Made by a program: the position numbers and the translations under genes. A DNA stretch of 64,000 nucleotides from Dictyostelium discoideum (lineage: Eukaryota). Under the pieces are notes generated by a model that did no database searches, was not told where the DNA came from, and was given only the letters and a program-made list of their open reading frames with translations. The stretch lies in contig CM000151.3 in the NCBI GenBank assembly GCA_000004695.1, positions 4,512,001 to 4,576,000 on the forward strand, given 5' to 3'. This document shows, one piece after another, positions 1,889 to 12,301 of the stretch (its first letter is position 1; each line of letters opens with the position of its first letter).

Positions 1889-4195
<2,307 letters not shown>

Positions 4196-4375
4196 ATTTC
4201 ACTACAGTAGCGTAGTGAATTTTATTATTTAATTTCACTACAGTAGCGTAGTGAAAAAAAAAAATCACTGACCTTAAATTTTTTTTTTTTTCAAAAAACA
4301 AATAAAGTTTATTAAATTGAAATTTTATTTTTTGTTTTAATTATTATTTTATTTATTTTTATTATAATTATTGTT

Positions 4376-4414
<39 letters not shown>

Positions 4415-6671
4415 CAATTTTTTTTTTTAAATTTTTTTCAATTTTTATTTGTTTATTAAATTGTAATTTTATTTTTTGTTTTAATTATTATTTTATTTAT
4501 TATTATTGTTAATTTTTTTTTTTTTTCAATTTTTTTTTTTTTAATTTATTTTTATTAATTTATTTTTATTAACTCCCTGAGTTGTTCAATTGCTTGATTT
4601 ACCATATCACTGTAAACACTGCACACAATTGAATTTTTTCTAGCTTTGTTACCTCTGGTGCATTTGATGTTTTTGCATTTTCCTTTGTATACAAAAAAGT
4701 CCAAATATAATTCGTTTTCTATTACAGTTTTTACACAATGTTGGTGAAATTGTTTTGATTTTAATTCTAATGCTTCTAACATCATATTTGGATTTTTAAC
4801 GATTAAAGCATCACCACTATTTACATATAGTACTTTGGCTGCTTTTTCGAGGAATTTAGTCAAATTTTCCTCTGAATCTAACTATTCTTCATTGCCATAT
4901 TCAATGGCTAAATTTCTTAAGAGTTTTATCGAATCTATTAATTCTTCGATCATTCTTTTTTTTTGAAATTTTTTTTTATTTTGTTTTTTCAATTTTTTTT
5001 TTTTATTTTGTTTTTTCAATTTTTTTTAAGTTTTATTTTTTTTTATTTTTTTTTGAAGGCTATTGATTCCATCTTCCAAAAATTCAAGTTTATAAAGTTG
5101 TTTAGTGTCTTCCTGTATTACCTTATGAATTTTACACAAAATCAATATTTTCTATTAGAATTAAATATAAAATTTGTTAATTATTACTGTTTCATATATT
5201 ATTAATCTTTATGTTTTAATTACTTACATTATTTTTTTTAATTTCTAGAAAGAGTACAGTATCACCAACTTTCAATCCCTTTGGTGGTTTTGAATTCCAT
5301 TGATTTTGGTAACTTGTGAGATTTTCAAGAATAATAGCTGTTCTTTCTTCTTTTGAAACATCTGAAACACCAATTGATTGAGAGTCTTGTTCTGATTGAA
5401 CATTAATAAACAAAGGAACAATACCAACAGCTTGAGATGGTGTCATTTTAATTGTTCTTGTTTTTGTATTATTGTAATCATACAAAGCTTGTTTTAATAG
5501 TTCAGAAAGAGACCTAGAAGTACCATCAAGAAAACTAAAATTTATTTATAAATGATTAATTAATAAACATATCGATAATTTATATTGTTCACAATATCAT
5601 ACTCTTGTTGTTTTAATTTTGAGATCCTCTCCTTGATAGTTCGATTCAATCTTTCTACCATACCTTGAGTTGTTGGTGTACGAGGAGCTCCATGTGCTGA
5701 CTTGGAGCCTGGAAAAAGTTTTAGGAATTCTTTTTGGACTTTGTTTTTAAATTCACGTCCATTATCGCAGTGCCATACTTTCACAGGTTTGCCAAAGTAC
5801 GTGAGAGCCAAAAAATTGTATATGGGAACTGTTCTCTTTGTTGTCAAACATCTAAAAAATAAATGATAATTAAAATAAAAAAAGAAAACTAATAAATTAA
5901 TAAATAAAAAATAAATACCTTCCAGTAGCAAATTTTGTAAAAGAATCTATGCATAGAATAATGTAAACAACATCGGTGTCGTACGGTTGTACAGAGTCAT
6001 ATTGGATAAGATCATCTAGTTTAGTTAGTATCTTTTCATTATCATCATCGTATGTAACTTTTTCTTTATGTTCACCTTTAATTGATGTTAAATCATAAAC
6101 CAATCTTGAGTATTCCTCGGTATCTACAATTGGAGCAAAATCCTTTGTTATACCTATTAATTTATTTAAATTATTAAAAGAGTTTTAATATAAAAGTTAC
6201 AAAACATCATATAAAAATGATTGATACCAAACCTTTTATTCTATTTCGTTGGCAAATGTCACACGTATCTACTGCATCAGATACAAAAGAATACAATCCC
6301 ATATTATAATATTTAGTCTTGTAGTTCCCATAGGTTGCATCTCTTCCTATATGACCTTTATGCATTTCTTCCCAGAGTGATACCATTCTATAATCATTAA
6401 TTACTTCTAAACACACTTCTTTTGATATATTTCTATCTCCGCCACAATTCATGACTTTTTTTTCAATTCTAAATAATTTTTCTTTTCTGTTTCTGTTTTT
6501 TATTGGTCAGAATTTAAAAAATGATTGTGTTATTGTAAGGAAAAATATTTACTCATCATGTAAAAATTTATAATTTTTATGTTTAGTATTTTCAAAATTA
6601 TTATCTTCAATAAATTTTAAATAATTTATAATTTCATTTATTTTATCTTGTTTCATTTTGGGAAAATGAAA

Positions 6672-6706
<35 letters not shown>

Positions 6707-6983
6707 TGTTGGGGAAAAAAAAAAAAAGTTTTGGCCCAAAAAAAAAAAAAAAAATAAAATAAAAAAAAAAAAAAATAAAATAAAAAAAAAAAAAAATAAA
6801 AAAACTTATATAGAACTAATAATCAAATAAAAGATAATAATTTAATAAACTTTATTTGTTTTTTGAAAAAAAAAAAATTTAGGGTCAGTGATTTTTTTTT
6901 TTCACTACGCTACTGTAGTGAAATTAAATAATAAAATTCACTACGCTACTGTAGTGAAATTTTATTGAAAATTCCCTACAACA
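4196..6983. mobile_element. TIR DNA transposon of about 2.8 kb encoding a retroviral-type DDE integrase, resembling the Dictyostelium Tdd-4/DDT class; inserted in a coding exon
   Basis: Terminal inverted repeats: 4196-4281 (aatttcactacagtagcgtagtgaattttattatttaatttcactacagtagcgtagtgaaaaaaaaaaatcactgaccttaaattt) is the reverse complement of 6877-6961. Each arm holds two copies of the near-palindrome ttcactacagtagcgtagtgaa. The right end extends to ...gaaaattccctacaacaa, which is the same terminus as the second element at 11607-11622. Inside are minus-strand ORFs with an integrase HHCC zinc finger and a DDE catalytic core. Confidence 0.8.
4555..6452 (-). CDS. Transposon integrase (HHCC zinc-binding domain, DDE core, GDTV C-terminal region); fragmented across several frames (introns and/or decay)
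   Basis: Minus-strand ORFs: 6207..6452 (HKGH...CDICQRN, an HHCC motif); 5897..6103 and 5560..5931 (VWHCDNGREF...HGAPRTPTTQGMVERLNRTIKE, the D,D(35)E signature of retroviral/retrotransposon integrases); 5216..5485 (KVGDTVLF, C-terminal region); and 4555..4863. The frames differ between segments, as expected for the intron-interrupted integrase ORFs reported for Tdd-4. Confidence 0.55.
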
Positions 6984-9351
6984 ATCATTATTCATGGTAA
7001 ACAATTTAGAAATGATTACTTTTATTCAAAATTTGGTGATCAAGCAAATTTAAATGTATTTTCAAATGGTATGTTTAAAAAACTATTTAAATTTAATTTT
7101 TTATATTATTTTTTTAAACTATTAAATTAATATTCTGGTTCTAATTTTTTTTTTTTTTTTTACTTAATTTTTTATAGATTGTTTTGAATTTCCACCAAGA
7201 GTTTCAAATTTAACTTTATTATCTAGTAATAGCGTTACATTAAACTCTAATCAAACTATTGGATGGGAAATTGTAATTGATAGTGGTGGTGGTATTAAAA
7301 TTAGTTATGTATTTATACATGTAATTTCAAATTTAGATAAAAAAGGATACACATTTGAATTCTATCCAAACTCTACCTCATGGGAAACCACAATTGGAAT
7401 TGCTCTATCACCAGAAACAACACCATCACAAATATTTAAAATTTATAATGCAACTATTATTGACGAAAGAGGAATTAGATCGGACCATATTGATAGTTTT
7501 AAAGTTGATGAAATTTTTTCAAATCAAAGTCCAATTTATCCAATTTCAATTTCACCATTTTATTTATTTGATCTTAGTTTATTTAGCATAACAGTTAATT
7601 CACCATTCATTACTGAATCTGTTCCACCAACAATTACACTTGTAACCCTACCATTTGAAAATGTAGATGATTTTTTACAATATTCAATTTTCTTTCAATT
7701 AGTGTCAACTGATAATGTTGGTATATTAAAAAGCCATATACCACAAGTTTATTTATCGCATTCATCAAACTATGGAGATTTACAAATTTTCCAATGTAAT
7801 ACAGCTATTAATGATACGTCTGAAACAACTTGTAATTATTATGTTACTTGTAAAGTTGAATATGGTTATGGTATTCAAAACCCTGTATCTGTTTTAGTTT
7901 ATGGTGTTGTTGATACTAGTTTCAATGTTGCAAGCTATAGTAGTTTAAGTGAATCCCAAACCTTTGATTTTAATGGTCTTTCCAATAAAAAAACACCTTC
8001 AATTTCAAGTTGGACACCATTAACACCATATAATAATAAATTAACAATTTTTGGTAGAAATTTCCCAACATCAGGTGGAAGTGCTTATTTATATTATACA
8101 GATAGTGATATTGATAATTTAGTAACTTTGAAATTTATTCATTCATCATCTGTAATGGCAGTTTTAGAAATTGGACAAGGTTTAAAACCATTTGTAGTTT
8201 ATACTCAAAATTCAAATAATGAAAAATCTAATAAAGTTGAAATTCATTATTTAGGAATTCCAACATCTTCTTCATCCTCATCTTCATCATCAGATGATGA
8301 TTCAACATTACCACCAGTTTTATGTTTTGATAATTGTGGTGGAACATCAAGAGGTACTTGTATTCCAAATGTTGGATGTAATTGTAAATCACCATATAGT
8401 GGTATAAATTGTCTTTCTGAAACAATTAAAATTCCAAAACCTCAAACAAATACAACATCACCAGATTCAAGAAATGAATTCCCTATTAGTGGTTCAGATA
8501 TTAAACTAAATACAATCATTTCAATTGTAGCATTAAGAGAATTAGATTTTCAAGGTAAACAGGTTAATATTCATTATTTTGATAGTTGGAATTTTACAAC
8601 AATATCTCAAACCAATTTCACATATAGATCACCAATTTTAAAAAACAATCAACATGTTTCAAATATATCAGTAGCAATGGAATGGCATGAACAATCTACA
8701 ACTATTACATTTGCAAAACAAAATCTCACAATTAATCCATCAACTTTGAAATATTATATTTCATTAGATAAATACCCATTTGCATCATCATTAAATACAC
8801 TTGATTTAATCATTAAATCAATGTTTAAAAGTTCACAAACTGATGATGTATGTGGCAGTAAAGGATTTTCATTAAATGATGGAAATGATTATATGACATT
8901 ACAAATTGGAACATACTCATTTGAAGGTAAATTTATAAAAAAAGCAATTATCAATGGCAATAGAATTGTAACAATAAATAATAAATTATTAAATGAAAAT
9001 CAACTAAATAGTAATTCAACTATAACTAAAGAAAAAGATTCATCAAATCAACTTTCATCCTTTATCTCAATTGAAATACCTCATTATGATTCAAATGTAT
9101 TATTAGATCCAAGTTTTTCAGTTTTATTAGATTCAAATGAATCATATAAAAACTCTGAAAATTCAATTTGTACTTCAAAAAAATCCTCAAAACTTACTAC
9201 CGCTCAAATAATTGCTATTGTTATTGTTTCTGTAGTTTTTGTAATAATTCTAGCTCTCTTTATAATCGTTAAATTTTCAAAATCTGATAAATTTTTATCT
9301 ATAAGAATTTTCTATTATAAATTATTTAAACGATTTAAGAAAAAGTATTAA
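6984..9351 (+). CDS. 3' part of the same membrane protein gene (exons 6984..7068 and 7178..9351), with an EGF-like Cys-rich module, a transmembrane helix and a short basic tail
   Basis: The frame is open from the transposon end (IIIHGKQFRNDYFYSKFGDQANLNVFSNG, then a GTATGT donor at 7069). An acceptor at 7176-7177 leads into the long ORF 7702..9351 (CFDNCGGTSRGTCIPNVGCNCKSPYSGINC; ALRELDF...TMNPSTLKYYISLDKYPF; IIAIVIVSVVFVIILALFIIV as the TM helix). A TIG-like motif is present (KLTIFGRNFPTSGGSAYLYY). The region is co-linear with the paralog. Confidence 0.65.
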
Positions 9352-9959
9352 ATTTATTTTTTAAAAAATAATATTAATTGTAAAATAAAGTTTAAAAAAT
9401 AGTTTTTATTAAATAGTTAAAGATTAATGTTTTTTTTTATACCTTTATTTTAATTTTTATTTATTATTTTTATTATAATAATCAGTAAATTTTTGAAAAC
9501 TATTGAATTTTTGGAATATAAATCCACCATTTAATTAATTACTACCAAGTGGTTAAACTTGGATGAAAATCCATTAGTAATTTTATTAATTAAATAATCT
9601 TTCAAAACTGGTAATTTTGAAATAGATAATTTTTTCCCAATCGTATTCGTTGTATGGGCTATCTGTTGATAATAACCAATGAAAAAGATGAAAGCAATCT
9701 TCTTTGATAGCACACGCTAATAATTCTTGTAATAATGTTTTTAAAAAACTCTTTACCCAATTCCTTAATGATTCTATGTGAAAGAAGATATTTAAAAGTT
9801 ATTAAATCAACACCATCATCATTATTAATAATTCTTTTTAAAAAAACTGAATAAATTAAATTTGCATGATTATCTGTAAACTTTTCACAGGTTATTATTT
9901 TTTCAAGCATATCAATTCTTCTATTCTTAATTGAATGATATATTAAACTTTCAAAAAAA

Positions 9960-10176
9960 TTGTTGAAGGGAATTTTTTTTGAAATTTCGCTTTTTAAACG
10001 GCAGTGAATTTTTACACTAAAATACACTGTTTATGCATGGTGTAAAAATTCACTAAATTTTTTTTTTTTTATAATTAAATTAAAAAACAATTTATTTAAT
10101 CAGAAAAATAAAAAACCAATTTTATTCAGTTATTTGCTTGTTATTTATTTTTTTATAACAAAAAAATTTAGTTTGC

Positions 10177-10235
<59 letters not shown>

Positions 10236-10327
10236 CAATTATTTTTTTCAATTTTTTTTTTTATCGATTGTTTTCATTTTTGGGGAATAAAATAAAATTG
10301 TTCGATAAAAAAAAAATTGAAAAAAAT

Positions 10328-10370
<43 letters not shown>

Positions 10371-10569
10371 GGTTTATATTTTAATTATGGTATTCATTAT
10401 TGTTTATATAATTATTTTTAGTATTTATATTATTTATAATTATAAACTCGAGTTAATAGAATTATTATTATTATTATTATTTAAATGTGGGTCAACTATA
10501 ATTAGTGTCTTAGTTCACTTATTTAATATTAACTTATTTTTGTGTCTTCGTTACATAAAAAAAAAAATG

Positions 10570-10603
<34 letters not shown>

Positions 10604-11622
10604 AAAAAAAAAATAAAAAAAAAAAGAAAAATAAAAAAAAAAAGAAAAATAAAAAATAAAAAAAAAAATAAAAAAAATAAAAAAAAAATAAAAAAAAAAG
10701 AGGGGTACCCCCTAAAAAAAAAGAGGGTACCCCCCTAAAAAAAATAATAATTTTAATAATAATAATAATAATAATAATAAAAATGAAAATTAATATTTAA
10801 ATAAAAAAAAGAGGGTACCCCCCTAAAAAATGTTGGAATTTAATTAAATTTATTTTTTATTTTTTTTATTTTTTAATTTTATTTTTTTTATTTTTTAATT
10901 TAAAAAATGTTGATATAAAACAAAAAAATTTTTTCAAAAAAAACATTTCAAATTATTAACAAATTATATTATTATACTTTAATGTATGTGTACAATTTTA
11001 AAAATTTAAAATTTGTTCTATTTTTATCAATCATATCATGTATATTTATTAATTAAATCTCATATATTCTTATTCCCAGCAAATGACATCAGGTGGAATC
11101 GTACAACCAGGCCAAAATCTCTCACAACGTCCAATAAACGGCCAATATGGCTGGGGACCAGCAGCAGGAAGTGCCGCAAATCCACGTGGCGATCTCCGTG
11201 GTTACACTTACAATATTAGATAGTTTCGCTGTCTATTTCTGAATATTCAGAAATCTTTGTTTAATGCCAAAAATAGTAGATATCTATTATATTTTCTCAT
11301 TTTATAAATCTGATAAGATCTGTCTTAAATAAAAAAAATCAAATTTTTTTATAAATTAAAAAAAATCATTTCCGCAAATCCGCAAAAAATAGCGGGAATT
11401 AAATTATTTATTGTTTTTTAAATTGTTTTTTTTGCGTGATATGAAATGAACAGCAAATGAACAACGTGTGAGTTGTATTAGCTGATGGTAAATTGTTGTT
11501 AATTTATAAAAAAAAAAAAAAAATTTTAGTGAATTTTTACACTACGCATAAACAGTGTATTTTAGTGTAAAAATTCACTGCCGTTTAGAAAGCGAAATTT
11601 CAAAAAAAATTCCCTACAACAA
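9960..11622. mobile_element. Non-autonomous TIR element of about 1.66 kb from the same family as the integrase-bearing element (identical 16-nt terminus, different subterminal hairpin repeats)
   Basis: 9960-10050 (ttgttgaagggaattttttttgaaatttcgctttttaaacggcagtgaatttttacactaaaatacactgtttatgcatggtgtaaaaattcacta) is the reverse complement of 11527-11622 (...aaaaaaaattccctacaacaa). Each TIR contains an internal hairpin (agtgaatttttacac...gtgtaaaaattcact). The interior is homopolymer and low-complexity DNA with no credible ORF. Confidence 0.75.
10685..10835. repeat. Three dispersed copies of an aaaaagagggtacccccctaaaaaa motif, with a palindromic GGGTACCC core, inside the non-autonomous element
   Basis: Copies lie at about 10689-10706, 10717-10737 and 10808-10826. 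They are the only G/C-rich islands in an otherwise A/T homopolymer interior. Confidence 0.6.
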
Positions 11623-11791
11623 AATCATTTAATTGCTTTTGGTTGTATTCTGGGAATAAACAACCAATTGTTTCAATGATTGTTTGGGATTTATTGGTTT
11701 TAAATATATCAATTAATAAATAAGATTTGTGTAAATTTAATTGATAAATTGGGTTTGTATGGATTTAATTTTTTTTCAAAAATACTATCAA

Positions 11792-12301
11792 TCATACTAT
11801 TATTAAAGGTATTGATACCAATACCAACCATACTATTATTAAAGATATTGATACCAATCGTACTATGGTTAAACGTATTGATACATTAATATTATTACCA
11901 ATTGTATTTAATAATAATTCTAAAAATTCTAAATCATTGGAACTTAAAACTTTTTCAATGAGATATTTAATTGTTTTAGTTTCAATATTAATGAGTTTAA
12001 TGAATGATGTTAAATTTGATTTAAAATTATTCTTTTCTGAAAAGAAATCATATAATGTTTCATCTAAATCTCTAATGAATACTAATATTTGTTTTTGTGA
12101 TGTTTCTTTAAATTTTAATAAACTTGAAATATATAATTCACTGGAAATTGGTAAAAGTTTTAATTTTAAACAATTTAAAAATGATTTTGAATTTGGATTG
12201 AATTCATTTACACTTGATAGTTTATCAATGAATTTTGATATCTTTTCACTATCTTGAATTGTTGTTGAACAATCTTGGAAACAATCTTTTTTTTTGATCA
12301 C
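11792..12301 (-). CDS. Hypothetical protein, 5' exon; its putative 3' exon lies beyond the non-autonomous element, at about 9659..9950 (minus strand)
   Basis: The ORF starts MIKKKDCFQDCSTTIQDSEKISKFIDKLSSVNEFNPNSKSFLNCLKLKLL.... Its C-terminal 25-30 codons read through 33-bp tandem repeats (11795-11895), so they are probably intronic; a GTAATA donor lies near 11893. A second open frame (..DNHANLIYSVFLKRIINNDDGVDLITFKYLLSHRIIKELGKEFFKNIITRIISVCYQRRL..) follows the element and has similar composition. No homolog was recognised. Confidence 0.3.
   Translation of the reverse strand: MIKKKDCFQDCSTTIQDSEKISKFIDKLSSVNEFNPNSKSFLNCLKLKLLPISSELYISSLLKFKETSQKQILVFIRDLDETLYDFFSEKNNFKSNLTSFIKLINIETKTIKYLIEKVLSSNDLEFLELLLNTIGNNINVSIRLTIVRLVSISLIIVWLVLVSIPLIIV

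Follow-up and report, generated by a model that had tools for sequence, protein, structure and literature searches.

Tdd-4 and Tdd-5, both described between 1999 and 2001, are known DNA transposon families of Dictyostelium discoideum, a species whose genome repeats were catalogued long ago; in that sense the finding reported here is an ordinary one. SPXX repeats were reportedly named by Wells in 1999 as a hallmark of Tdd-4, and terminal inverted repeats (TIRs) of 145 bp have reportedly been described as well. Both families make 5-bp target-site duplications (TSDs), and the termini of Ginger2 elements begin with TGTNR (PMC2836005). The Repbase TDD-5 entry is 3,783 bp long with TIRs of 297 bp (PMC2836005, Table 2), and DDB_G0290955 is the putative transposase gene of Tdd-5, a transposon recorded as ‘related to Tdd-4’ (PMC3386910 and its supplement, quoting dictyBase).

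We analysed 64,000 nucleotides of AT-rich D. discoideum DNA (positions 4,512,001 to 4,576,000 of contig CM000151.3; this whole stretch is the window), in which two repeats lie 3 kb apart. The initial annotation paired them as an integrase-bearing autonomous element and a 1.66-kb satellite served by the same enzyme. On our analysis, the 1.66-kb element is very probably a non-autonomous, internally deleted member of Tdd-5 (Ginger2/Tdd group, with a retroviral-integrase-like DDE transposase), and its neighbour is a defective Tdd-4 copy. The features are listed below; copies in other assemblies are given by locus (L002 and so on) and their integrases by protein (P0002 and so on).

4195–6983, minus strand: defective copy of Tdd-4; its integrase, encoded on the minus strand, is 98% identical to DDB_G0292352
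6968–6983, minus strand: Tdd-4 right terminus, 16 nt identical to the consensus Tdd-5 terminus TGTTGTAGGGAATTTT
9956–9960, no strand: left flank AAAAT, presumed copy of the target-site duplication, read from the sequence
9961–10365, plus strand: Tdd-5 left end, matching L002 and L006 and corresponding to Tdd-5 positions 1 to ~400
10003–10054, no strand: left subterminal palindrome AGTGAATTTTTACAC(22 nt)GTGTAAAAATTCACT, from arm count and DNA fold
10366–10699, plus strand: Tdd-5 3' internal segment, 89% identical to L002 11500–11781 and L007 11529–11830
10700–11488, plus strand: extra segment of 789 nt, absent from canonical Tdd-5
11083–11223, plus strand: orphan open reading frame (ORF) of 46 codons, 100% identical to hypothetical protein DDB_G0269070 / DDB_G0294605
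11489–11621, minus strand: Tdd-5 outer right TIR, ending ...AAAATTCCCTACAACA, 95–97% identical to the L002 and L007 right ends
11528–11579, no strand: right subterminal palindrome, mirror of 10003–10054, from arm count and DNA fold
11622–11626, no strand: right flank AAATC, read from the sequence

Boundaries and anatomy of the small element

The inverted repeats and the shared 16-mer that the initial annotation placed at 9960–11622 are present there, far beyond chance. The arms of the inverted repeat (9960–10086 and 11496–11622) are 127 nt long and 92% complementary, and a search for AAATTCCCTACAACAA with up to two mismatches found three sites in the window, at 6969–6984 (plus strand), 9960–9975 (minus strand, one mismatch) and 11607–11622 (plus strand), compared with 0.22 expected from shuffled sequences (0 of 100 shuffles reached three). 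Alignment of copies, which had been proposed as the way to the real termini and the duplication length, gave TG...CA ends and perfect 5-bp TSDs in all four complete sister copies: CCTTT for the Tdd-5 element of L002, ATTAG for that of L006, ATATA for a Tdd-4 element nested in L002 and GCAAC for a third family in L004. Because complete sister copies have these termini and duplications, we define the small element as 9961–11621 (1,661 bp, termini TG...CA). Its ends, TGTTGAAGGG... and ...CCCTACAACA, follow the TGTNR...CA rule. The outer 16 nt, TGTTGTAGGGAATTTT, equal the end of the integrase element at 6968–6983; the correspondence of 16–17 nt noted earlier therefore stands for the 16 nt, but the outermost T/A of the 17-mer is flanking DNA. 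At lower identity the TIR reaches ~260–300 nt, within the Ginger2/Tdd range of about 50–300 bp. The flanks AAAAT and AAATC can be read as a perfect 4-bp duplication, AAAT, or as a 5-bp duplication that lacks one A in the A-run. With the element taken out, the unoccupied site would read CTTTCAAAAAAATCATTTAATTG.

The left end consists of an outer 126 nt of high-identity TIR, starting TGTTGAAGGGAATTTT, and an inner palindromic part of T-runs and A-runs. Positions 1–300 of the element are 92% identical to positions 1–305 of the L002 Tdd-5 copy and positions 1–275 are 95% identical to L006, and the match runs on to about position 400. The segment that follows, 10366–10699, represents the ~300 nt directly upstream of the right TIR in full-length Tdd-5 copies, and everything between the left end and 10366 has been deleted, the entire transposase gene among it. 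The alignment to L002 and L007 is collinear up to 10699 and picks up again at 11489, so that the 789-nt extra segment stands in place of ~96 nt from the inner portion of the right TIR; this inner portion (about 11365–11488) is far more diverged than in canonical Tdd-5. The Tdd-5 sequence retained comprises ~400 nt of the left end and ~470 nt of the right end. No integrase-like transposase gene (H2C2 zinc finger plus DDE core) was found within the small element, which is therefore non-autonomous.

Each end of the small element carries a hairpin-like subterminal palindrome. Its arm, AGTGAATTTTTACAC, has four exact occurrences in the window (0.83 expected), two at either end of this element and none elsewhere, and the DNA fold of the ends is strong (z = −3.9, left; z = −4.2, right). 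Palindromes of this type are kept in all Tdd-5 ends, and we regard the one at 10003–10054 as a putative transposase-binding site. The 22-nt palindrome TTCACTACAGTAGCGTAGTGAA also has four exact copies, two per end of the integrase element; it occurs only at 4198–4255 and 6901–6958, and none was found in 9961–11621 even with three mismatches. The earlier observations that the two elements carry different subterminal palindromes and that both use GTGAA/TTCAC arms were accurate, the arms being paired half-sites in subterminal palindromes at equivalent positions.

The description of the small element as a MITE-like deletion derivative or relative of the integrase element is apt in part: the element is transposase-less, has long TIRs and falls in the same integrase-type group, but the parent would be Tdd-5 rather than the neighbour. 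MITEs also have TIRs, lack a transposase and need an enzyme in trans; they are, however, usually <800 bp, non-coding and high-copy, whereas this element has 1,661 bp, an ORF-bearing insert and, judged from the accessions of its ORF, apparently only ~3–4 copies. ‘Deletion derivative’ is the better term. A comparable case is Ginger2-1N1_NV of Nematostella (PMC2836005, Table 2), in which the TIRs of a cut-and-paste element of integrase type likewise persist without a transposase, but which has 252 bp, >50 copies and 4-bp duplications, in contrast to the 1.66 kb, low copy number and extra sequence found here.

Relationship to Tdd-5 and to the neighbouring Tdd-4 copy

The assignment to Tdd-5 comes from other D. 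discoideum assemblies, in which Tdd-5 ends match both ends of the small element at 92–97% over 133–300 nt. At L002 (assembly GCA_054883475.1), both ends match at 92–95%, and between the matching ends an element (4200–12000, TSD CCTTT) encloses the integrase gene P0002. Ends of the small-element type also surround P0018 at L006 (3689–6596, TSD ATTAG), and single ends lie beside P0021 at L007 (right end, 12053) and beside P0004 at L003 (left end, 5667). The 90% identity cluster of P0002 includes DDB_G0290955, the Tdd-5 gene. Without its nested Tdd-4 fragment and three insertions of ~760 bp, the L002 copy measures about 3.77 kb; the Tdd-5 copies fit the Repbase figures in length and TIR length, a comparison made by length only. 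The Tdd-5 protein P0018 matches PF17921 (Integrase_H2C2) above the Pfam cut-off, with rve and rve_3 just below theirs. The rve_3 model passes its cut-off in P0007, a fourth type of integrase, and rve-type matches in Tdd-4, Tdd-5 and P0011, the integrase of the third family, fall just under the cut-offs.

Compared with described Tdd-5 (Repbase TDD-5, AF298206; DDB_G0290955), the small element shares the terminal and subterminal sequence, the TG...CA termini, the start TGTTG and the internal 3' segment, and Tdd-5 sister copies have 5-bp duplications. It differs in lacking the transposase gene, with about 2.9 kb deleted, in having a foreign 789-nt segment for part of the inner right TIR and in its imperfect target duplication.

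Sister copies of Tdd-5 show two further features. The ~760-bp insertions at L002 (4608–5369, 6067–6827 and 10677–11435) have the termini CACAGCAAAGAAAAA...TTTGCTGTG and 2-bp duplications (TA, TA and GC), and the corresponding sites are empty in sister Tdd-5 elements (~4093 and ~4790 at L006; ~11466 at L007). The inserted element resembles a Tc1/mariner-type MITE that was active recently, perhaps DDT-S. At L006, the Tdd-5 element has a right TIR cut to 57 nt, which leaves the palindrome incomplete, although the ATTAG duplication is perfect; either 57 nt of one end suffices to transpose, or the 1.65-kb deletion post-dates the insertion.

A multicopy unit of 1.66 kb may already have a curated name, given that a list of complex repeats claimed to be complete was reportedly compiled by Glockner et al. 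in 2001, and thug elements are likewise small and without a transposase. Even so, we consider it unlikely that the small element, instead of deriving from Tdd-5, belongs to another named family such as thug-T, thug-S or DDT-S. Its ends are plainly those of Tdd-5, and thug and DDT have been described as separate from Tdd (PMC5633606). The published microRNA pair of thug-S (hairpin miRNA_can_D3, 5p and 3p; PMC4894637 Table 2, S4), a proxy for the thug-S consensus, had no matches in the window with up to three mismatches. As for DDT-S, the ~760-bp element with 2-bp (TA) duplications at L002 has quite different termini, the name DDT-S being itself a guess. The small element may nevertheless carry another curated name, for example thug-T.

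The neighbouring element encodes, at 4.5–6.7 kb, an integrase that is 98% identical to the AX4 protein DDB_G0292352. This full-length relative contains a run of tandem SPXX repeats, by which we take it to belong to Tdd-4. At 90% identity or more, the window integrase groups with many AX4 genes, which fits the 19 Tdd-4 elements reported (PMC3386910). Its Integrase_H2C2 match scores 33 bits against a Pfam cut-off of 25.5, with rve and rve_3 just under theirs. The copy is defective. Relative to DDB_G0292352, transposase amino acids 267–566 (about 300 codons) are missing and the last exon contains an in-frame stop, so this copy cannot supply transposase; in addition, the outermost 22 nt are absent from its left arm, leaving the 16-mer at the right end only. 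The role of autonomous partner is thus not one that this neighbour can fill, and the ends of the small element are in any case those of another family. The adjacency of Tdd-4 and Tdd-5, 3 kb apart, is probably a coincidence of transposon-rich DNA and not an autonomous–satellite pair.

The Tdd-4 copy breaks a coding exon of a large plus-strand gene (about 1889–9351), with ...CTGTLPFL preceding the insertion in the host protein and IIIHGKQFRNDYFYSKFGDQ... following it; host bases may have been lost in the deletion that took the outer 22 nt from the left TIR. An intron of this plus-strand gene contains a long (ATT)n microsatellite of ~100 nt (2986–3087).

Tdd-4 (Wells 1999; Repbase TDD-4) shares with Tdd-5 the outer 16 nt, TG...CA termini, 5-bp duplications and paired GTGAA/TTCAC palindromes. 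Each Tdd-4 end has two 22-nt palindromes, whereas each Tdd-5 end has a single hairpin-like repeat, its 15-nt arms separated by a 22-nt spacer. The transposases (P0002 compared with the window integrase) are only 49% identical, and the SPXX repeats of the Tdd-4 protein (DDB_G0292352) contrast with PPTIVTQAPS-type repeats in the Tdd-5 protein.

These similarities bear on the reading in which one integrase, from the neighbouring or another Tdd-4 copy, cross-mobilizes the small element through the shared terminus, making it a satellite of Tdd-4. The two families are identical in their outer 16 nt and conserve AAATTTC, GTAGTGAATTTT and GTGAA/TTCAC half-sites at equivalent positions; moreover, Tdd-4 is abundant and expressed in AX4 (19 elements), whereas Tdd-5 is listed once or twice (PMC3386910), and with the ORF marker in at least 3–4 copies a plentiful source of enzyme would be convenient. 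We judge this reading quite unlikely, because the ends are 92–97% identical to Tdd-5 compared with ~63% to Tdd-4, because three families share the tip yet keep their own integrases and palindromes, which argues for family-specific recognition, and because the defective neighbour could supply nothing. Cross-mobilization by the abundant Tdd-4 enzyme is possible but not indicated.

The extra segment, mobility and the insertion site

The 789-nt stretch that distinguishes the small element from canonical Tdd-5 gave no blastn match to loci L001–L007, and no TIR bounding the segment was found. It contains three AGAGGGTACCCCCCT palindromes and the G+C-rich 46-codon ORF. Palindromes of the form AGAGGG(G)TACCCCC(C)T, which is G+C-rich and contains GGTACC, lie amid A-rich DNA there at 10699–10713, 10722–10736 and 10810–10824. 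The ORF protein is represented by four identical AX4 accessions on three contigs. A HMMER search with it against 1.84 billion representatives returned only itself and low-complexity proteins, a Pfam search found no family, and a function for the ORF is doubtful. DDB_G0269070 and DDB_G0294605 are probably a transposon-borne ORF and not genuine host genes. We also considered the ORF as the last exon of the Tdd-5 transposase and rejected this, since none of the Tdd-5 loci examined contains it.

Other searches were negative within their scope. A 26-mer of the ORF and a Tdd-5 terminal 30-mer had no match in metagenome, GTDB genome and viral collections, which are non-eukaryotic and in which none was expected; exact-protein look-ups of P0017, P0001, the neighbouring 475-aa ORF and an alternative 68-aa ORF returned no record and thus yielded neither another copy of the small element nor an orthologous locus; and Rfam gave only sub-threshold chance matches over 9800–11800, so the hairpins correspond to no known RNA.

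Dispersal of the composite unit, or of the extra segment alone, is suggested by the identical ORF copies. They are also the one observation from which we infer that the 1.66-kb element has been mobile as a small unit. By analogy with other cut-and-paste elements, its movement would require a Tdd-5-type transposase supplied in trans. The predicted targets of this enzyme are the family-specific subterminal palindromes, for binding, and the conserved TG...CA termini, for cleavage; insertion would then produce a 5-bp target duplication.

Alternatively, a full-length Tdd-5 element could have inserted here and never moved as a small unit, local deletion and repair having later removed its interior and added filler. 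Rearranged Tdd-5 copies are common, as illustrated by the L006 element, which lacks most of its right TIR as well as 1.65 kb of sequence, and by the L002 element, which is riddled with nested insertions; furthermore, the small element may be old, judging from its imperfect duplication and diverged inner right TIR. Decay in place is nonetheless rather unlikely in view of the four identical AX4 accessions of the ORF on three contigs and its absence from the canonical Tdd-5 elements examined. Dispersal after the segment was gained is the simplest explanation of this distribution; otherwise, the segment would be a repeat in its own right. At the far end of the range, we consider it very unlikely that the 1.66-kb unit is a distinct, mobile non-autonomous subfamily that acquired the 0.8-kb orphan-ORF segment, outnumbers a nearly extinct Tdd-5 in AX4 and borrows the abundant Tdd-4 transposase through the 16-nt tip. 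If true, the borrowing of the Tdd-4 enzyme would be a natural case of cross-family mobilization among integrase-type DNA transposons.

The small element had been tentatively placed in the intron of a minus-strand gene, a location that our analysis does not support. Excising it with one copy of the duplication joins two minus-strand ORF pieces in frame, giving an ORF of 147 codons with the junction ...EYNQKQLND/FFESLIYH..., although agreement in frame has a chance level of one in three. No homologue of the reconstructed host protein emerged from a protein search, and no domain from Pfam. The upstream host sequence (about 11700–11890) needs frame changes, and the interrupted host is probably an unannotated or decayed gene. 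At 11790–11890, where the reading frame breaks, there are ~3 tandem copies of a 36-nt unit, GTATCAATAYNTTTAAYNATAGTAYGRTTG (minus strand).

The terminus shared among families

The shared 16-mer had been taken to imply a single transposase. Tdd-4, Tdd-5 and the third family all start TGTTGTAGGGAA(T/A)TTT, which fits the TGTNR rule for Ginger2. The third family is represented by a 4.03-kb element at L004 (3820–7850, TSD GCAAC), whose integrase P0011 is ~40% identical to that of Tdd-4. Each of the three families has its own integrase (40–50% identical) and its own subterminal palindromes, and the ends of all three fold as strong palindromes. Since at least three families with their own integrases carry the 16-mer, it does not point to a single enzyme. 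The third family and the fourth integrase type, P0007 (L005, 5001–9126), are both found in the D. discoideum assembly GCA_054859385.1; the integrase match list contained no AX4 proteins of either type, and no recognizable termini were found at the D. firmibasis locus L008 or at the fourth-family locus L005.

The subterminal repeats of the two elements in the window had been called unrelated. Over about 115 nt, however, the Tdd-4 and Tdd-5 ends form a collinear alignment of 63% identity, with the conserved blocks AAATTTC, GTAGTGAATTTT and TCACT half-sites, and positions 17–110 alone, beyond the 16-mer, score above shuffled sequences (z = 3.3; 0 of 500 shuffles reached the observed score). Judged by this alignment, the subterminal regions of the two families are diverged homologues, and the 16-nt terminus is a feature conserved across the group through common descent rather than by chance. 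It had also been foreseen that the two TIR sets might belong to distinct named families with unrelated termini: the families are distinct, Tdd-4 and Tdd-5, but their termini are related.

For annotation, the adjacent repeats become two named and related families, Tdd-4 and Tdd-5, instead of an autonomous element and its satellite. The boundaries of the elements are fixed at TG...CA, 46-codon ‘genes’ of the DDB_G0269070 type are flagged as transposon cargo, and a minus-strand ORF interrupted by the insertion of the small element is identified. For the biology of the group, at least three Tdd families of Dictyostelium have diverged in integrase and subterminal repeats but retain an identical 16-nt tip. 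The conserved tip would probably meet the needs of the integrase-type active site, and the diverged subterminal palindromes would probably give each family its specificity. Integrase-type enzymes would be expected to show just such a pattern, in which labour is divided between the tip, for catalysis, and the subterminal repeats, for recognition.
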